Of a stretch of DNA of 64,000 nucleotides, positions 19,372-52,097 are shown piece by piece. The stretch lies in NCBI GenBank assembly GCA_965208905.1, contig OZ242365.1, positions 832,001 to 896,000 of the forward strand, in the 5' to 3' direction. Both the position numbers and the translations under genes were made by a program. The notes below the pieces were generated by a model. That model had not been told where the DNA came from and searched no databases. It saw nothing but the letters and a program-made list of their open reading frames with translations. The first letter of the stretch is position 1; the number at the start of each line of letters is the position of its first letter. Origin of the DNA: Nitrosopumilaceae archaeon. Lineage in GTDB: Archaea; Thermoproteota; Nitrososphaeria; Nitrososphaerales; Nitrosopumilaceae.

Positions 19372-20193
19372 GTGGGCCTATTTGGTAGAGACGAGAATCC
19401 TGAATATTTAATGCGTCAAGCCATGCTATTTATGCAAAAAAATCAACACAAAAAAGCTGTTGGAGAATTTAAAAAAATATTAAAACAGGAACCAAGAAAT
19501 GAAAAAGTTCTATATCAAATTGGGATTGCTCTGAATGGTTTAAAAAAACACAACGACACAATAACATATGCAGATAGAATTCTTGAAATAAATCCTAAAA
19601 ATACTGGCGCCTACAACAATAAAGGAAAAGCCTTTGCAGAGATGGGCAATCTTGAATCGGCCATTAAATGTTATGATGAAGCTATTATTGCAAATTCTAA
19701 GGATTATGAGGCGTATTTTAACAAGGGTGTACTTTTAGCAAAGATTCAAGACTATGACACCGCCTTAGAACTGATTAAAAAAAGCATATCTTTGAATAAA
19801 AAAAACCCTGCTCTGCATCTGCACTCGGGAATAATTTTAGGAAAGATGAAGAAAAATAAAGAGGCATTAAAAGTTCTTGAAAACATTGAACGTAAATTTG
19901 GAGCCCATCCGGATGTTACCTTCCAGCAGGGAATACAGCTGGCAGAGATGGGCGAACACAAAAAAGCAATAAAAATATTTGAAAATATGGGAGAGTCTCA
20001 TGCAGATAATGTAAATATAATATATGCAATATCGCGTAGTCGGGCTGCCATAGGCGAGTACGATGATGCATTACGTCTGTTAAAGAAGGCCGTATCCAAG
20101 AGTCCCAAAGTAATACGGGCATGGGCCAAAGATGAAGACATCTTTAATCCACTACATGCGAATAAAGCCTTTAGACGTCTGGTAAAGATGTAG
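19372..20193 (+). CDS. TPR-repeat protein
   Basis: Repeated AYxNKG-type 34-aa units. Confidence 0.85.
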   Translation: MGLFGRDENPEYLMRQAMLFMQKNQHKKAVGEFKKILKQEPRNEKVLYQIGIALNGLKKHNDTITYADRILEINPKNTGAYNNKGKAFAEMGNLESAIKCYDEAIIANSKDYEAYFNKGVLLAKIQDYDTALELIKKSISLNKKNPALHLHSGIILGKMKKNKEALKVLENIERKFGAHPDVTFQQGIQLAEMGEHKKAIKIFENMGESHADNVNIIYAISRSRAAIGEYDDALRLLKKAVSKSPKVIRAWAKDEDIFNPLHANKAFRRLVKM

Positions 20194-20464
20194 ACTGTCT
20201 CTTTAGTGTGTCCGATAATAGTGCCGATATAAAACCATCAAATTCATCATCAGAAAAATCCACATAATCAATGAACTCCTCCTTTGATGCACACTTCAAG
20301 TGATAGCATTGTACATTGGGGTTGTAATAGTATGCAGGACAAGAACAGTAATTAAAAGATGGGGCCATCCAATGCTCGGCCTCCTTGCCAATCATGGTCC
20401 ATATGCATCTGCCACTGGGCATAAATCGATGCACCTTGACCCTTCCGTTAGATGTACTCTTCAT
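20171..20464 (-). CDS. SWIM zinc-finger protein
   Basis: CSC...CYH motif. Confidence 0.75.
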   Translation of the reverse strand: MKSTSNGRVKVHRFMPSGRCIWTMIGKEAEHWMAPSFNYCSCPAYYYNPNVQCYHLKCASKEEFIDYVDFSDDEFDGFISALLSDTLKRQSTSLPDV

Positions 20465-23400
20465 GTTTTATTATCTGTAGGTGGTATAAGATATGGTTGT
20501 ATGGGATAGCGGGTTGTCTTGTTTGTCTTCATCCATTCGAGTGTATTTACAAAGGCGTCTGCCAGCTCTATGGTGGTCAGGACAGGTATCCCCAGCTCCA
20601 ATGCCTTGCGCCGTATCTGATACTCGTCCTCAAGCATACCGATGTACTTTTCTAGTGTGGATGTACTGGGAATATTGATTATAAAGTCTATCTTCCGGTT
20701 GTATAACATGTCGGCGATATTTGGCTTTCTATTTGGCTCAGATATTTTATGGACTACTTTGATGGCGCCTAGTCTCTCCTCAAAGAACTCTGCAGTATGT
20801 TCGGTGGCCAATATATTAAAGCCCAATTCATGTAGTTTGGCCACACTAGGTAGTAGTTTCTCTTTGTTTCGTATGCCGCCTACAGTTACCAGCGCCGTGC
20901 CATGAGACGGCAAGTTGTAGCCTACCGCCGTCAGCCCCTTGGATAATGCATCATAAAAACTCTGTCCAAAACATGCCGCCTCACCAGTAGAGTGCATCTC
21001 CACACCCAATGTCAAATCGGCACCCTCCAACTGCATAAAAGAGAACTGCGGCACCTTTATGCCAAAGTTGGGTATACCTCTCCAATGATCAATGGGTACT
21101 TTGGGTAGTTTCATACCTAGTATGGACATGGAGGCCAGTGATATCATGTTTATGCCCACCAGTTTTGATACAAACGGCATGGACCGTGATGCGCGTATAT
21201 TCAGCTCTATAACATACACCTCATTATCATGTATTAAGAACTGTAGATTGAACGGCCCCCTTATACGAAATGTACGGGCTATCTTGATGGTGTACTCAGT
21301 TATGGTCTCTATGGTCTTGTTGTTCAATCGCCATGGTGGTATGGACATCATGGCATCGCCAGAGTGAACCCCGGCGCTGTCTATATGTTCTACTATGGCA
21401 CCAATTATAACATCGGTACCATCAGATACGCCATCCACATCCACCTCCAGTGAGTCTAACATGAACTTTGATATCACCACCGGATGGTTTGGCGAGAGGT
21501 TTGTGGCTTTGCGTGTGTAGGTGCGCAGCTCATCATCGGACCAGACCACCTTCATGGCGGCGCCTGAGAGTACATAAGATGGTCTTACCAGTACAGGGAA
21601 TCCCACCTCCCGGGCAAAGGAGCGAGCTTCGGGTAACTGGGAGAATGCTCGCCATTGAGGCTGACGAATGTGTAATTTATCTAAAGCTGCGCTGAACTTT
21701 GAGCGGTCTTCTGCGCGGTCCACATCTGACGCAAGCGTCCCTAGTATGGGAACCCCGCCCAGAGCCAAGGCCGGTGTAAGATTGTTGGCGGTCTGACCTC
21801 CTACACATGTAACTACCCCCCGGGGCTGCTCAAACTCAATTATATCCATTATGCGCTCAAATGTAAGCTCCTCAAAGTATAACCTCTCGCATATATCATA
21901 GTCGGTGGAGACAGTCTCAGGATTGCAGTTTACCACCGAGACGGGCATCTTGCCGTGTTCCCGAATGCCCCAGACCATATTGACCGTTCCCCAGTCAAAC
22001 TCCACACTACTTCCTATTCTGTATGGCCCGGCCCCAATGACCATTATGCCTCTACCATCATCGTTGGGTGTGGCTATATCGTGAGTCTCTCCTCCATATG
22101 TCATGTATAGGTAGTTTGTGGCAGCAGGCCATTCGGCCGCCAACGAGTCTATCTGTTTGAGACTGGGCAGTATGCCCATCTCTTTGCGCATACTGCGTAC
22201 TTGCGCATCTGTCTTCTGCCACGCTCTGCCAATCTGTACATCCGAAAAACCAGCAGCTTTGGCCTCCCGCAATATACTGGTATCTTTTGATGATGCCATG
22301 GATGTCTGAACCTGCACAATATGTCGTATCTTTTCTATAAACCACGGGTCTATGGCTGAAAGTTTTGTTATTCTCCTTGTACTGAATCCTGCCATGATGG
22401 CTGTCACAACATGATACAGTATGCTATCATCAAGATGGACAAGTCTGTCTTCAAGCTCTTCCTCTGTATACTCTTTAGTTGCAAACCTGTTCAGCACCAG
22501 ACCATCCATGCCTATATCCAACATGCGTATGGCCTTTTGAAGGGACTCTTCAAATGTACGCCCAATTCCCATGACCTCCCCGACAGACTTCATGGTGGGG
22601 CCTAATCTACGCTCTACCATGTCAAATTTGGCAAAGTCCCATCTGGGATGTTTACATACTATATAATCCAATGACGGCTCAAAACATGCAGTAGTCTTTT
22701 TGGTTATTGTGTTTGTCAACTCGTGCAGTCCATATCCCAAGCCTATCTTGGCAGACATGTACGCCAACGGGTACCCGGTAGCTTTGCTGGCAAGGGCTGA
22801 TGAGCGAGAAAGTCTGGGATTTACCTCTATGGCCACATACTTTTCAGAGTCTGGACTCAGAGCAAACTGTATGTTACACTCGCCCACTATGCCTATGTGC
22901 TTGGTGGCCCGGAGTCCTGCAGATCTTAGTATGTGATACTCTCGGTTTGTCAATGTCTGTGAGGGTGCAACAACTATGTTGTCGCCTGTATGTACCTTCA
23001 TGGATAGCACATTCTCCATATTGCATACAATGACACCATTGTCTTCTGCATCCCGCATTATCTCATATTCGATCTGCTTCCATGCTCCAATGTACTCCTC
23101 TATCAGAACCTGCCCAACCATACTGGCCTTGAGGCCTCTCTCTACAATCTCGTGCAGGTCCAGTTCGTTATATGCAACACCGCCACCCTTGCCCCCTAGA
23201 GTATATGCTACTCGGACTATTACCGGAAAGCCTAACCTTTGGGCTGTCTTTTTGGCATCCTCAAAGTTGGTTACTGTATCACTTGGCAGTACCGGTACGT
23301 CGCAGTCCACCATGGCATCCTTGAAGAGTTGTCTATCTTCGGTCATCTGTATACCTTCTATCTTGGTACCCAACACTTCAACACCATACTTTTTTAGCGT

Positions 23401-23740
23401 GTCACTTTGAGCCAGACTTACGCCACAGTTTAGCGCAGTCTGTCCACCGTATGAGAGCATTATTGCATCAGGACGCTCTTCTTCAATAACAGATTTGACA
23501 TAGTCTGGCGTAACTGGTAAGAGGTACACCTTATCGGCAAAGCGTGTGTCGGTTTGGATGGTGGCAACGTTGGGGTTTATGAGTATGCTATGAAGCCCAT
23601 CTTCCCTTATGGCTTTGAGGCATTGGCTGCCGGAGTAGTCGAACTGGCGGTCGATTTTGGCGACTTTCGCCGGCTTCTCCGATCTTTATTGCCCCACTAC
23701 CAAGTACCAGTATATTCCTTAATGTCTCACGTCTAGGCAG
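20461..23740 (-). CDS. carB: Carbamoyl-phosphate synthase large subunit, interrupted by a 22-nt putative intron (23644-23665)
   Basis: Exon 1 (23740-23666) PRRETLRNILVLGSGAIKIGEAGE joins FDYSGSQCLKAI in the frame of the 1022-aa ORF; start appears to be CTG overlapping the carA stop. Confidence 0.9.
23644..23665 (-). other. Putative bulge-helix-bulge/loop pre-mRNA intron in carB
   Basis: GGCG-AA^A-GUCG-CCAAAAU-CGAC-CGCC-AG^U; removal restores frame and motif. Confidence 0.75.
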
Positions 23741-24851
23741 GCCGGGGGTCCTCCATCATACTCTGCAACTCCTTGAAGATAAATTCACAATCGTACGGCC
23801 CTGGCGATGCTTCAGGGTGAAACTGCACAGCAATGCATGGCCGAGTCTTGTGTCTTATACCTTCAACGGTACCATCATCGGTATTGGTAAACCATAAATC
23901 AAACTCCGAATCCGCCAAGGATTCGGGACTAATAGCATAGCCATGGTTCTGACTGGTTACGTGAACCTGGCCTGTGGATACATCAAGACATGACTTGTTC
24001 TGACCTCGGTGCCCATACTTTAGTTTGTAGGTCTTTGCATTGCCAGCTAGGCTTATGATTTGTGCCCCCAAACATATTCCCAACATCGGTATGTCCTCAT
24101 CTAGTATTTTACGTGCAGCATGTATGGTGTCTGGACAATGAATTGGGTCTCCGGGCCCATTACTGATAATTACGCCTGCAGGATCGTACGAGAGTATGTC
24201 TGATACTTTTGTATTATATGGAACCTTTACTGCACGATAGCCTAGATTTACAACGTGGCGCAGAATTGCATTCTTCGCACCCGTATCTACAACTACCACG
24301 TTGCGACCTGAACCAAACGTCAAATGTTTCTTGGTAGATACATCATCCACTAGATGTTCTGAGTTATACTGGGGAGCATCTGGCAGTTGCTCTTTTAGTA
24401 TGTCTGTATCTATGGGATGCTCTGAGACCTTTAGGGCGGCCATGCGCACGCCATCTTCGCGTAGGGATTTTGTGAGGTGTCTTGTATCTATTCCAGATAT
24501 GCCTGGTATGTTGTTTTTGTAGAGCCATTCATCTAAAGTCATAGATAGATTCCAATGACTGGCAACTTTGGTTAACTCGTGTATGACAAGACCACGTACC
24601 TGTATACTGTCAGATTCAAAGTTCAATGGTATTCCTGAATCATCAGTCACTGCGGGGTCGGGGACGCCATAATTTCCCACCAAAGGATATGTTATGGATA
24701 AGATTTGGCCTTTGTATGAGGGATCTGTCAGTGTCTCGATATACCCCACCATTCCTGTGTTGAATACGGCCTCACCGAACACCGTCTTTGGGTACCCAAA
24801 ACCCTCTCCCTCAAGAACAACCCCATCATCTAGAACTAATGCTGCAAACAT
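23733..24851 (-). CDS. carA: Carbamoyl-phosphate synthase small subunit
   Basis: FNTGMVGY, SNGPGDP, GICLG, QNHG, QFHPE. Confidence 0.96.
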   Translation of the reverse strand: MFAALVLDDGVVLEGEGFGYPKTVFGEAVFNTGMVGYIETLTDPSYKGQILSITYPLVGNYGVPDPAVTDDSGIPLNFESDSIQVRGLVIHELTKVASHWNLSMTLDEWLYKNNIPGISGIDTRHLTKSLREDGVRMAALKVSEHPIDTDILKEQLPDAPQYNSEHLVDDVSTKKHLTFGSGRNVVVVDTGAKNAILRHVVNLGYRAVKVPYNTKVSDILSYDPAGVIISNGPGDPIHCPDTIHAARKILDEDIPMLGICLGAQIISLAGNAKTYKLKYGHRGQNKSCLDVSTGQVHVTSQNHGYAISPESLADSEFDLWFTNTDDGTVEGIRHKTRPCIAVQFHPEASPGPYDCEFIFKELQSMMEDPRPA

Positions 24852-51178: not shown

Positions 51179-51592
51179 ATGGTGCCGCAAGATCCTAATC
51201 CAATACCATGGGGAGCAATGGACCGCTTTCAAGCTCATTACATTGTAAAGACATCATCTGATGATCCCCACATGTATCTTGCTAGGACCCGCCTAAAAAC
51301 AAAGGGCCATTTTGCATCAAAAAAACTAGAGTCTGTATCGTGGGAGGGAGTTGGTGATCTGGCAGTATCTTTGAACAATGATGAGGAACTAAAGAATATG
51401 ATACTGAAACAAGATGTACGCGATGCCAACATACTTGTAGAGCCCACCGATGGTGCAGTACGCATACATGGGAAATGGAAAAATCATCTGGAGTTTGGAG
51501 TTACTAAAGAACAGTTTGATATCTACGACAGGATTGCCGGTCATGTGAAATCATTGAATACGTTTAAGCCTTCCACCAATCCAGAGCCATAA
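51179..51592 (+). CDS. Hypothetical protein
   Basis: Clean 137-aa ORF, globular composition. Confidence 0.65.
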   Translation: MVPQDPNPIPWGAMDRFQAHYIVKTSSDDPHMYLARTRLKTKGHFASKKLESVSWEGVGDLAVSLNNDEELKNMILKQDVRDANILVEPTDGAVRIHGKWKNHLEFGVTKEQFDIYDRIAGHVKSLNTFKPSTNPEP

Positions 51593-52097
51593 AATCTACA
51601 TTTTTGCCCCGGGGTATAGCCAAGATGAACTGTTTTCTGACGGTGGTGGCTAGTCTGCCCGCCAAAACAAGACTGGTTGTTGTGATGGCGTCTCGCGTAC
51701 CATATACGTGAACCAGATACGGCGCATGGTCTATGCCTGGCCCTGATTTGTATACGGCAAAATCACATCCAAACTTTATACCTGGAGTCACTACATATCC
51801 CAAGTCACGAAACGTCTTGTATACTAGATACTTTCTATCAAAGTTACTATACTTGGACTTGCATATCTCTTTCATTGTCGGTATGCTTACTACTTTATGA
51901 GCTAGGCGAACATCTATGCGACCTGTCTCCAAAAGATATAGCCCCTCTATAAGGTCCAGCACCAGAGGCACGTCTATCTGCTCGGGCTTGGGCTTTGGTA
52001 TACCTATGGGTTTTCCGTAGTAACCACTACAAAATAGTCTTTTAGAGTCCTGTATGTCCCATATGATTATACGATTTTCCACAAGGTTACCCTTCAT
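51564..52097 (-). CDS. endA: tRNA splicing endonuclease, catalytic subunit
   Basis: GYYGKPIG specificity loop, GIKFGCDFAVY, GPGIDHAPY, RLATTVRK. Confidence 0.92.
   Translation of the reverse strand: MKGNLVENRIIIWDIQDSKRLFCSGYYGKPIGIPKPKPEQIDVPLVLDLIEGLYLLETGRIDVRLAHKVVSIPTMKEICKSKYSNFDRKYLVYKTFRDLGYVVTPGIKFGCDFAVYKSGPGIDHAPYLVHVYGTRDAITTTSLVLAGRLATTVRKQFILAIPRGKNVDFMALDWWKA

Follow-up and report, generated by a model that had tools for sequence, protein, structure and literature searches.

The carbamoyl-phosphate synthase gene carB of a Nitrosopumilaceae archaeon lies on the minus strand of the 64,000-nucleotide stretch of DNA analysed here (the window; contig OZ242365.1, positions 832,001 to 896,000), and close to its 5' end the reading frame is broken by 22 nucleotides. 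We conclude that these 22 nucleotides are very probably an archaeal tRNA-type intron of the bulge-helix-bulge (BHB) kind, which is removed from the transcript by the splicing endonuclease EndA and the RNA ligase RtcB and whose removal is required for full-length CarB. The 22 nucleotides are absent from RNA contigs, related genomes conserve helices with compensating changes around them, and the genes for both enzymes are encoded by the host; from this evidence we infer the action of EndA and RtcB and the translation of the spliced product.

The upstream frame of carB reads ...LPRRETLRNILVLGSGAIKIGEAGE, ending in IKIGEAGE at position 23666, and then enters the 22-nt insert (23665 down to 23644, minus strand) to meet a TAG stop 24 codons later. 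From 23643, the frame one base over reads FDYSGSQCLKAIREDG... and is open for 1060 codons, as far as 20461; deleting the 22 nt restores GEAGE|FDYSG. The second exon (20461-23643, minus; 1060 codons plus stop, beginning FDYSGSQ) encodes a product that matches the CarB profile TIGR01369 with 1362.5 bits over profile positions 25-1051 of 1052. Since the match begins at position 25, about 24 N-terminal positions are missing from it, and these correspond to the 25 codons before the insert. Those codons make up exon 1 (23666-23740, minus), which probably starts at CTG (23740-23738) and ends with GAA (23668-23666), a Glu codon. Directly upstream lies carA, which encodes the small subunit (23733-24851, minus; TIGR01368, 430.8 bits) and is intact; its stop codon (23735-23733) overlaps the start of carB by 8 nt. 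The host genome (G000) is a closed single contig of 2,214,775 bp that is 99.57% complete and holds one carB, and no second, uninterrupted carB occurs in it, the sole other match being a 25%-identical ATP-grasp protein. An initial annotation of the window had described the 22-nt insertion and the shift to an early TAG, had called carA and the rest of carB intact, and had named a second carB elsewhere as a point to check; the insertion, the shift and the intact genes agree with the sequence. A 97-aa open reading frame (ORF) without a Pfam match (20171-20464, minus) lies directly downstream of carB and overlaps its stop codon.

The transcript evidence comes from Logan contigs of metatranscriptomes, which show the presence of a sequence, not its proportion, strand or origin. 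Ten metatranscriptome runs contain some of the stretch and nine contain at least a third of its sampled words; four of the runs (X1 and X2 from one study, X3 and X5 from one further study each) were examined over positions 22900-24500. In all four, and thus in three studies, the sole contig crossing the site omits exactly 22 nt at 23644, and the depth with the gap equals the total depth (11.2/11.2, 10.3/10.3, 19.9/19.9 and 12.9/12.9). No insert-bearing, unspliced contig was found among the four runs. Three contigs bridge the junction with at least 42 letters on each side, namely record 1 of X1 (838 nt, no mismatches), record 7 of X2 (273 nt, no mismatches) and record 12 of X3 (750 nt, four mismatches). 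Record 16 of X5 bridges it with only 21 letters on one side, and record 15 of the same run stops at 23643 with a 9-letter loose end that is the end of exon 1. Record 1 of X1 also continues from carB into carA. Because the bases at the edges of the gap differ, the gap cannot slide and its placement is unique, and the junction is therefore GAA|UUC (Glu|Phe), the same as that produced when each bulge is cut behind its second base. Such a cut is the rule for tRNA-type introns, and this junction is the one that had been predicted from the fold before the RNA was consulted.

The insert is not peculiar to this genome. The N-terminal region of carB was read in 58 genomes, comprising the host and 57 of 60 relatives (two relatives with only weak ATP-grasp matches and one with no match were excluded). 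An insert was found at the same Glu|Phe boundary in 40 genomes, and the other 18 have an uninterrupted GEAGE-FDYSG. It was present in 31 of 35 genomes of the window's family, including all 10 genomes read from its genus (the host and nine others), and in 9 of 23 genomes from other families of the order. Insert length was mostly 21 nt (20 genomes) or 22 nt (14), with two inserts of 20 nt and one each of 17, 23, 26 and 30 nt. These lengths cover all three frame classes, and every insert with a length divisible by three (21 of 21) contains an in-frame stop; no frameshift or read-through could serve all of them, which indicates that the insert must be removed.

On the RNA, the intron and its edges can be folded around a 4-bp central helix H, formed by GGCG of exon 1 (23668-23671, the Gly codon and the first base of the Glu codon) and CGCC near the 3' end of the intron (23646-23649). 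On the 5' side, the 3-nt bulge AA|A (23665-23667) is followed by an inner hairpin h' (23650-23664) made of GUCG (23664-23661), the loop CCAAAAU and CGAC (23653-23650); on the 3' side, the three bases AG|U (23643-23645) have no directly closing helix beyond them. All of these elements are on the minus strand, and the bulges are divided at the observed junction. The pairings GGCG/CGCC and GUCG/CGAC and the bulges AAA and AGU, which the initial annotation had named from the sequence, all stand at the positions it gave.

We used the related inserts to assess this fold, with a structure parse anchored on the splice sites known from the protein alignment rather than on an RNA alignment. All 40 inserts fit one architecture of a 4-bp helix, a 3-nt bulge, an inner hairpin and a 3-nt bulge. 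Helix H (GGYG in the exon, CRYN in the intron) has all four pairs in 34 introns and three of four, with an outer G.A, in the other six; in two families, GGCG/CGCC is replaced by GGUG/CACC or GGUG/CACU. At the 5' bulge, 31 introns have AAA, eight AGA and one AGU, and H and h' close it in every case. The inner helix has 3-6 bp throughout, with 19 distinct pair sets and a loop of 3-13 nt, and the 3' bulge is AAU (24), AGU (14) or AUU (2). In each of the 40 introns, cuts placed behind the second base of the bulges, as the rule demands, fall between the Glu and Phe codons.

A MAFFT alignment of the 36 distinct rows among the 40 introns (A1) was then scored for pairing and covariation. In A1, 94.4% of the cells are paired, compared to 28.5-45.2% after a shift of the 3' partners by 1-3 columns. 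Both partners differ in 38 double-change cells vs 11.1 ± 2.9 in shuffled alignments, a number reached by none of 500 shuffles, and four of the five inner-helix pairs change on both sides. One pair of H also changes from C-G to U-A in two rows, where the Gly codon has gone synonymously from GGC to GGU and the intron has changed to match. Same-site insertions with covarying helices, which had been proposed as a check on the intron, were thus present. When run unaided, RNAalifold recovered three of the four H pairs (columns 35-37 with 64-66), four h' pairs and all six pairs of an additional helix, P2, which joins the two exons, and it placed three more pairs in the interval from P2 to the 3' splice site. 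Taken together, the comparative and RNA evidence put the fold beyond chance.

Helix P2 is formed by UCGGAG (23677-23682, minus) and CUCCGG (23630-23635, minus) and was returned both by RNAalifold and by the minimum free energy (MFE) fold. All six pairs are possible in 38 of 39 intron-bearing genes vs 2 of 18 intron-less ones, a contrast that is a pattern and not a test because related genomes are not independent. Farther out, a possible distal helix P1 between GGGGCA (23690-23695, minus) and UGCCUC (23617-23622, minus) has weaker support than P2: 92.6% of its cells are paired in A1 and no pair changes on both sides. Across 25 genes of the family that bear the intron (an identical row having been left out), third positions hardly vary between codons -11 and +9 and are free to change beyond, and the synonymous sites of the 3' strand of P2 are frozen only in intron-bearing genes. 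The flanks of the intron thus appear, from these substitution patterns, to carry an extra constraint at the RNA level. In codons -21 to -12 of exon 1, the amino acids are conserved while the third positions vary, which indicates that exon 1 is translated.

Several observations weigh against our conclusion. The canonical definition of the motif, hBHBh', does not describe this intron, as H is present but the 3' bulge lacks an adjacent outer helix; in the RNAalifold consensus the 3' bulge becomes a 1x5 internal loop, followed by the 3-pair helix and then P2. We therefore class the motif as relaxed HBh', a class that shares with the bulge-helix-loop (BHL) form one intact bulge with H and a flanking helix and another bulge opened into a loop, as is found here. 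The fold of the single sequence is also unremarkable. A 66-nt fold gave z = -1.28, with 18 of 200 shuffles folding equally well, and the BHB fold, at -22.8 to -24.8 kcal/mol and with pair probabilities of about 0.2, lies above the MFE structure of -31.1 kcal/mol; single-sequence folding does not favour the BHB fold and was therefore not used as support. The MFE structure includes a competing hairpin, GGCGA/UCGCC (23661-23671, minus), in which the exon strand of H pairs with the 5' end of the intron, although this hairpin is impossible in several relatives, e.g., those with GUCA inner helices. The exon-exon helices lie in coding sequence and show no double-side changes, and are supported by frozen synonymous sites in genomes that are not independent. 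Finally, the RNA support consists of Logan contigs, without a spliced-to-unspliced ratio, and an intron-less DNA allele in the communities sampled for RNA is excluded only indirectly.

The host encodes the machinery that such an intron needs. The endA gene within the window (51564-52097, minus), at the place given by the initial annotation, encodes a catalytic-type subunit with both EndA domains (PF01974 and PF02778) whose closest solved structures are the crenarchaeal chains 3p1z_B, 3ajv_B and 2cv8_A. A second EndA paralog, above the Pfam cut-off, lies outside the window (G000:C1:1178799-1179335) and is closest to the EndA-like half of 5x89, a fused enzyme from Methanopyrus; we assign the putative roles of the two subunits by this likeness. 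The genome also encodes RtcB (581.6 bits). According to the excerpts consulted of a study of archaeal tRNA introns (PMC5829648), (alpha-beta)2 EndA is conserved in Thaumarchaeota, relaxed motifs are removed only by the (alpha-beta)2 and epsilon2 enzymes, and the HBh' and BHL motifs have one intact bulge with H and a flanking helix, the other being disrupted or looped. The two EndA paralogs and the RNA ligase correspond to what a relaxed motif requires, and the earlier suggestion of a heteromeric endonuclease that accepts relaxed motifs is consistent with them. ARAGORN predicted 48 tRNA genes in the genome, six of them with introns. Two of its calls are odd, a 60-nt intron at position 34 of a tRNA-Gln and a 3-nt 'intron' in a tRNA-Pro.

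On this basis, we propose the following route to CarB. In the carAB transcript, GGCG at the end of exon 1 would pair with CGCC in the 3' part of the intron to give the 4-bp central helix, as the comparison of relatives suggests. One side of H would then present the 3-nt bulge AA|A and the short intron hairpin, and the other would present AG|U opened into a loop, while P2, about 10 nt farther out, would hold the exons together. The two-subunit EndA would cleave each bulge behind its second base, and RtcB would join the exons into the GEAGE|FDYSG frame. Full-length CarB would be possible only from the spliced mRNA.

It is conceivable that the splicing is real while the enzymes are a nuclease and a ligase other than EndA and RtcB, and that the likeness to a BHB motif is incidental. 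The relaxed loop at the 3' site and the fact that the BHB fold is not the MFE structure of the window's own sequence would fit such a reading, yet the observed junction is exactly the one that the BHB rule predicts, and all 40 introns, which come from many families, retain H, h' and the two 3-nt bulges, with compensatory changes. The genome, moreover, encodes the two-subunit type of EndA reported to accept relaxed motifs (PMC5829648, in the excerpts consulted). A self-splicing group I or group II intron, or another curated RNA family, was considered as a candidate and rejected, as 17-30 nt is far below the size of self-splicing introns and Rfam gave no match with E <= 1 in 23400-23900. We regard the involvement of other enzymes as improbable. 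Still less probable, in our judgement, is that the gap contigs derive from an intron-less DNA allele or strain, with the insert-bearing gene unspliced and possibly decaying. RNA libraries can hold DNA, of which Logan contigs would show neither strand nor origin, and intron-less carB genes do occur in related genera (18 of 58 genomes; in genus g14 only 23 of 84 match the site pattern described below). Against this, the contigs match the host genome without mismatches over 838 and 273 nt, while the intron-less alleles of relatives differ from it at many synonymous sites in the flanks. All 10 genomes read from the genus carry the insert, and 8 of 8 match the pattern. Carry-over of DNA would also be expected to give insert-bearing contigs, and none occurred in the four runs. 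Decay, which the initial annotation had already thought unlikely, is contradicted by the conserved protein sequence of exon 1 and the conserved helices of the insert.

Two further explanations do without splicing. Ribosomes might bypass the 22 nt or shift frame over them, as in T4 gene 60, and the stop or frame break directly after the take-off codon and the hairpin in the gap recall such a mechanism. The 22 nt are nevertheless absent from RNA contigs, and no single frameshift works for inserts of 17-30 nt in all frame classes. In addition, the codon before the landing site (CAG, CAA, AAA, AAG, AAT, TAA, TAG or CAT) never matches the take-off codon GAA or GAG. We thus consider bypass extremely unlikely. 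It is equally hard to credit that the insert is an assembly or sequencing artefact, or that the frame upstream is dead and CarB starts internally (e.g., at GTG 23529, giving 1022 aa). ORF callers would indeed choose the 1022-aa frame, but the insert occurs in independent assemblies (40 of 58 genomes, and 225 of 401 by pattern), and a start at 23529 would cost the protein about 63 conserved residues at its N-terminus, among them the glycine-rich GSG...GEAGEFDYSG. Constraint on exon 1 at the protein level also contradicts a dead gene.

The wider distribution was assessed with a site pattern composed of the Gly-Glu codons, 17-32 nt with conserved edge bases, and the Phe-Asp-Tyr codons. The pattern is blind to carB genes without Gly-Glu (e.g., Ala-Glu), and longer, ORF-bearing introns fall outside its 17-32 nt range. 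It matched 225 of 401 genomes of the class, nearly always once per genome, or 220 of 396 without five unpublished genomes (G259, G173, G348, G307 and G384), and a reversed control pattern gave a single match in the class scan. By family, the matches were 150 of 223 in f1, 64 of 78 in f15, 3 of 11 in f10, 4 of 4 in f4, and 1 of 1 each in f13 and f2, with 1 of 9 in f21, a family of another order. As the counts for g14 illustrate, presence varies within genera. There was no match in 257 genomes from other classes of the phylum, where a carB with Ala-Glu would escape the pattern.

A quick IQ-TREE search on 47 CarB fragments (480 residues) gave a tree in which the family's four intron-less rows nest among intron-bearing ones, and outgroup families also bear the intron. 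These placements make the intron ancestral for the family and its absence a loss, and the intron is probably older than the family. The tree needs three changes to account for the four intron-less family rows, of which the well-supported branches force only one. The intron is old, being common to at least nine families of the order, and it was lost precisely in several lineages. The sole pattern match outside the window's order, a 23-nt intron in locus L064 (genome G102, family f21), belongs to a CarB that groups with f10 with a support of 99, which suggests a transfer of carB or a misplaced genome.

The start codon of carB also differs between intron-bearing and intron-less genes. In the window it seems, from the alignment of relatives, to be the CTG at 23738-23740 (minus): the conserved N-terminus LPRRETL and the in-frame TGA before it (23758-23756) have no ATG, GTG or TTG between them, the CTG aligns with the ATG or TTG start of relatives, and a GGAGG-like run precedes it. 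Among 39 intron-bearing genes, the aligned codon is CTG in 26, ATG in five, TTG in three, ATA in two, and CTA, CTT and GAT in one each, whereas CTG is the start in 0 of 18 intron-less genes. Within family f1, the four intron-less genes (L015, L020, L021 and L023) all start with ATG or TTG, and 26 of 30 intron-bearing ones with CTG. Descent of the intron-less genes from a single allele could account for this association, as could a functional link, and the tree cannot separate the two.

Repeated loss of the intron in relatives indicates that it is dispensable, and most likely it persists as a tolerated relic rather than as a switch. A regulatory step in arginine/pyrimidine synthesis, put forward by the initial annotation, would be a possible role. 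The alternative, that it serves as a functional checkpoint in which the capacity of EndA and RtcB gates CarB and hence entry into pyrimidine and arginine synthesis, seems doubtful. Such a gate would act together with a weak CUG start coupled to carA and ammonia-oxidising archaea would have maintained it over hundreds of millions of years, the competing MFE hairpin could be its predicted off state, and the CTG starts of 26 of 39 intron-bearing vs 0 of 18 intron-less genes could reflect co-adaptation. By analogy, it would be an archaeal counterpart of HAC1/XBP1, in which the endonuclease is Ire1, not the tRNA splicing endonuclease, and which is a proven stress-regulated switch. The likenesses between HAC1/XBP1, a system mentioned in a review (PMC13149111), and carB lie in the spliceosome-free removal of a short mRNA intron, in a frame change that decides the protein, and in the joining of exons by a tRNA ligase or RtcB, which for carB is our proposal.

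The closest precedent for the carB intron is that of cbf5, a pre-mRNA intron reportedly treated, to judge by their titles, by Watanabe (2002) and Yoshinari (2006). Full-text literature searches, which do not cover supplementary tables, returned no report of an intron in carB. In the portions consulted of the following sources, the cbf5 intron is the only mRNA intron reported besides the authors' own 5'-UTR (untranslated region) case (PMC7714728, 2020), splicing is confirmed for no gene but cbf5 (Yokobori 2009, PMC2738675), Table 1 of the same paper gives Cenarchaeum and Nitrosopumilus a count of 0 for cbf5 introns, and the reference list of a 2025 paper (PMC12397907) covers pre-mRNA splicing only through three papers on cbf5. 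As described there, the cbf5 intron of Desulfurococcales and Sulfolobales resembles that of carB in being a BHB-type intron within a protein-coding gene, in having a relaxed motif linked to a hetero-oligomeric EndA, and in being old in its clade, with precise lineage-specific losses and a confusing effect on gene prediction. The two differ in host gene, as cbf5 encodes an RNA-modification enzyme and carB a core metabolic one, and in lineage, the cbf5 intron occurring in hyperthermophilic Crenarchaeota and the carB intron in the ammonia-oxidiser lineage, a different class. The evidence also differs, with reverse transcription PCR and enzyme assays for cbf5 and metatranscriptome contigs and covariation for carB. 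We considered whether the insert might be a homologous intron of the cbf5 lineage and rejected this, as the host gene is carB; it is an independent case of the same kind.

Two other systems bear comparison, in the light of the excerpts consulted for each. Like carB, HVO_1309 of Haloferax volcanii (Schwarz 2020, PMC7714728) provides an mRNA substrate beyond tRNA and rRNA, but its intron sits in the 5' UTR and not in the reading frame, it has a canonical motif and a homodimeric-type enzyme, and the evidence comes from one species, that text reporting no deep conservation. The non-canonical tRNA introns of TACK archaea (HBh', hBH and BHL; PMC5829648) share with carB the 4-bp helix, the 3-nt bulges of which one is disrupted, the cut after the second bulge base, the sequence of (alpha-beta)2 EndA followed by RtcB, and similar sizes. 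They reside in tRNA, whereas the carB intron resides in mRNA and the exon strand of its helix H is made of codons (Gly-Glu), which means that the structure is co-constrained with the protein sequence.

In the literature searched, cbf5 is the only protein gene of archaea with an RNA-confirmed intron in its coding region, and carB would be the second. It is a central metabolic gene in a different class from the cbf5 cases, and its hosts, judging from their lineage, are likely among the most abundant archaea on Earth. With direct RNA support and rich covariation, it offers a good natural substrate for the reading of relaxed motifs in mRNA by heteromeric EndA. Because of the 25-codon first exon, the CTG start and the 22-nt break, gene callers will report a truncated or frameshifted CarB; carB may thus be mis-annotated on the scale of the 225 of 401 class genomes that match the pattern, and pathway reconstructions could wrongly flag arginine or pyrimidine auxotrophy. 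The variation of the intron within genera also provides a system for the study of precise intron loss in archaea.

The neighbourhood of carB was covered by a Pfam scan of ten long ORFs between 15.5 and 29 kb, which identified CorA, ion channel, aminotransferase, TPR, UDG, MPG, VTT and ABC proteins and left one ORF without a match. No homing-endonuclease gene was found among these ten ORFs, and pyrF, which the initial annotation had called intact, was not among them either, no search having been aimed at it. We also scanned the host genome for BHB-like motifs whose removal would merge long open frames, a design that would miss carB itself on account of its short first exon; the scan gave at least about 500 matches on the plus strand and was dropped as unspecific. 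Outside the window, at G000:C1:485136-485197, at least five tandem copies of a 12-nt unit occur within a long open frame.

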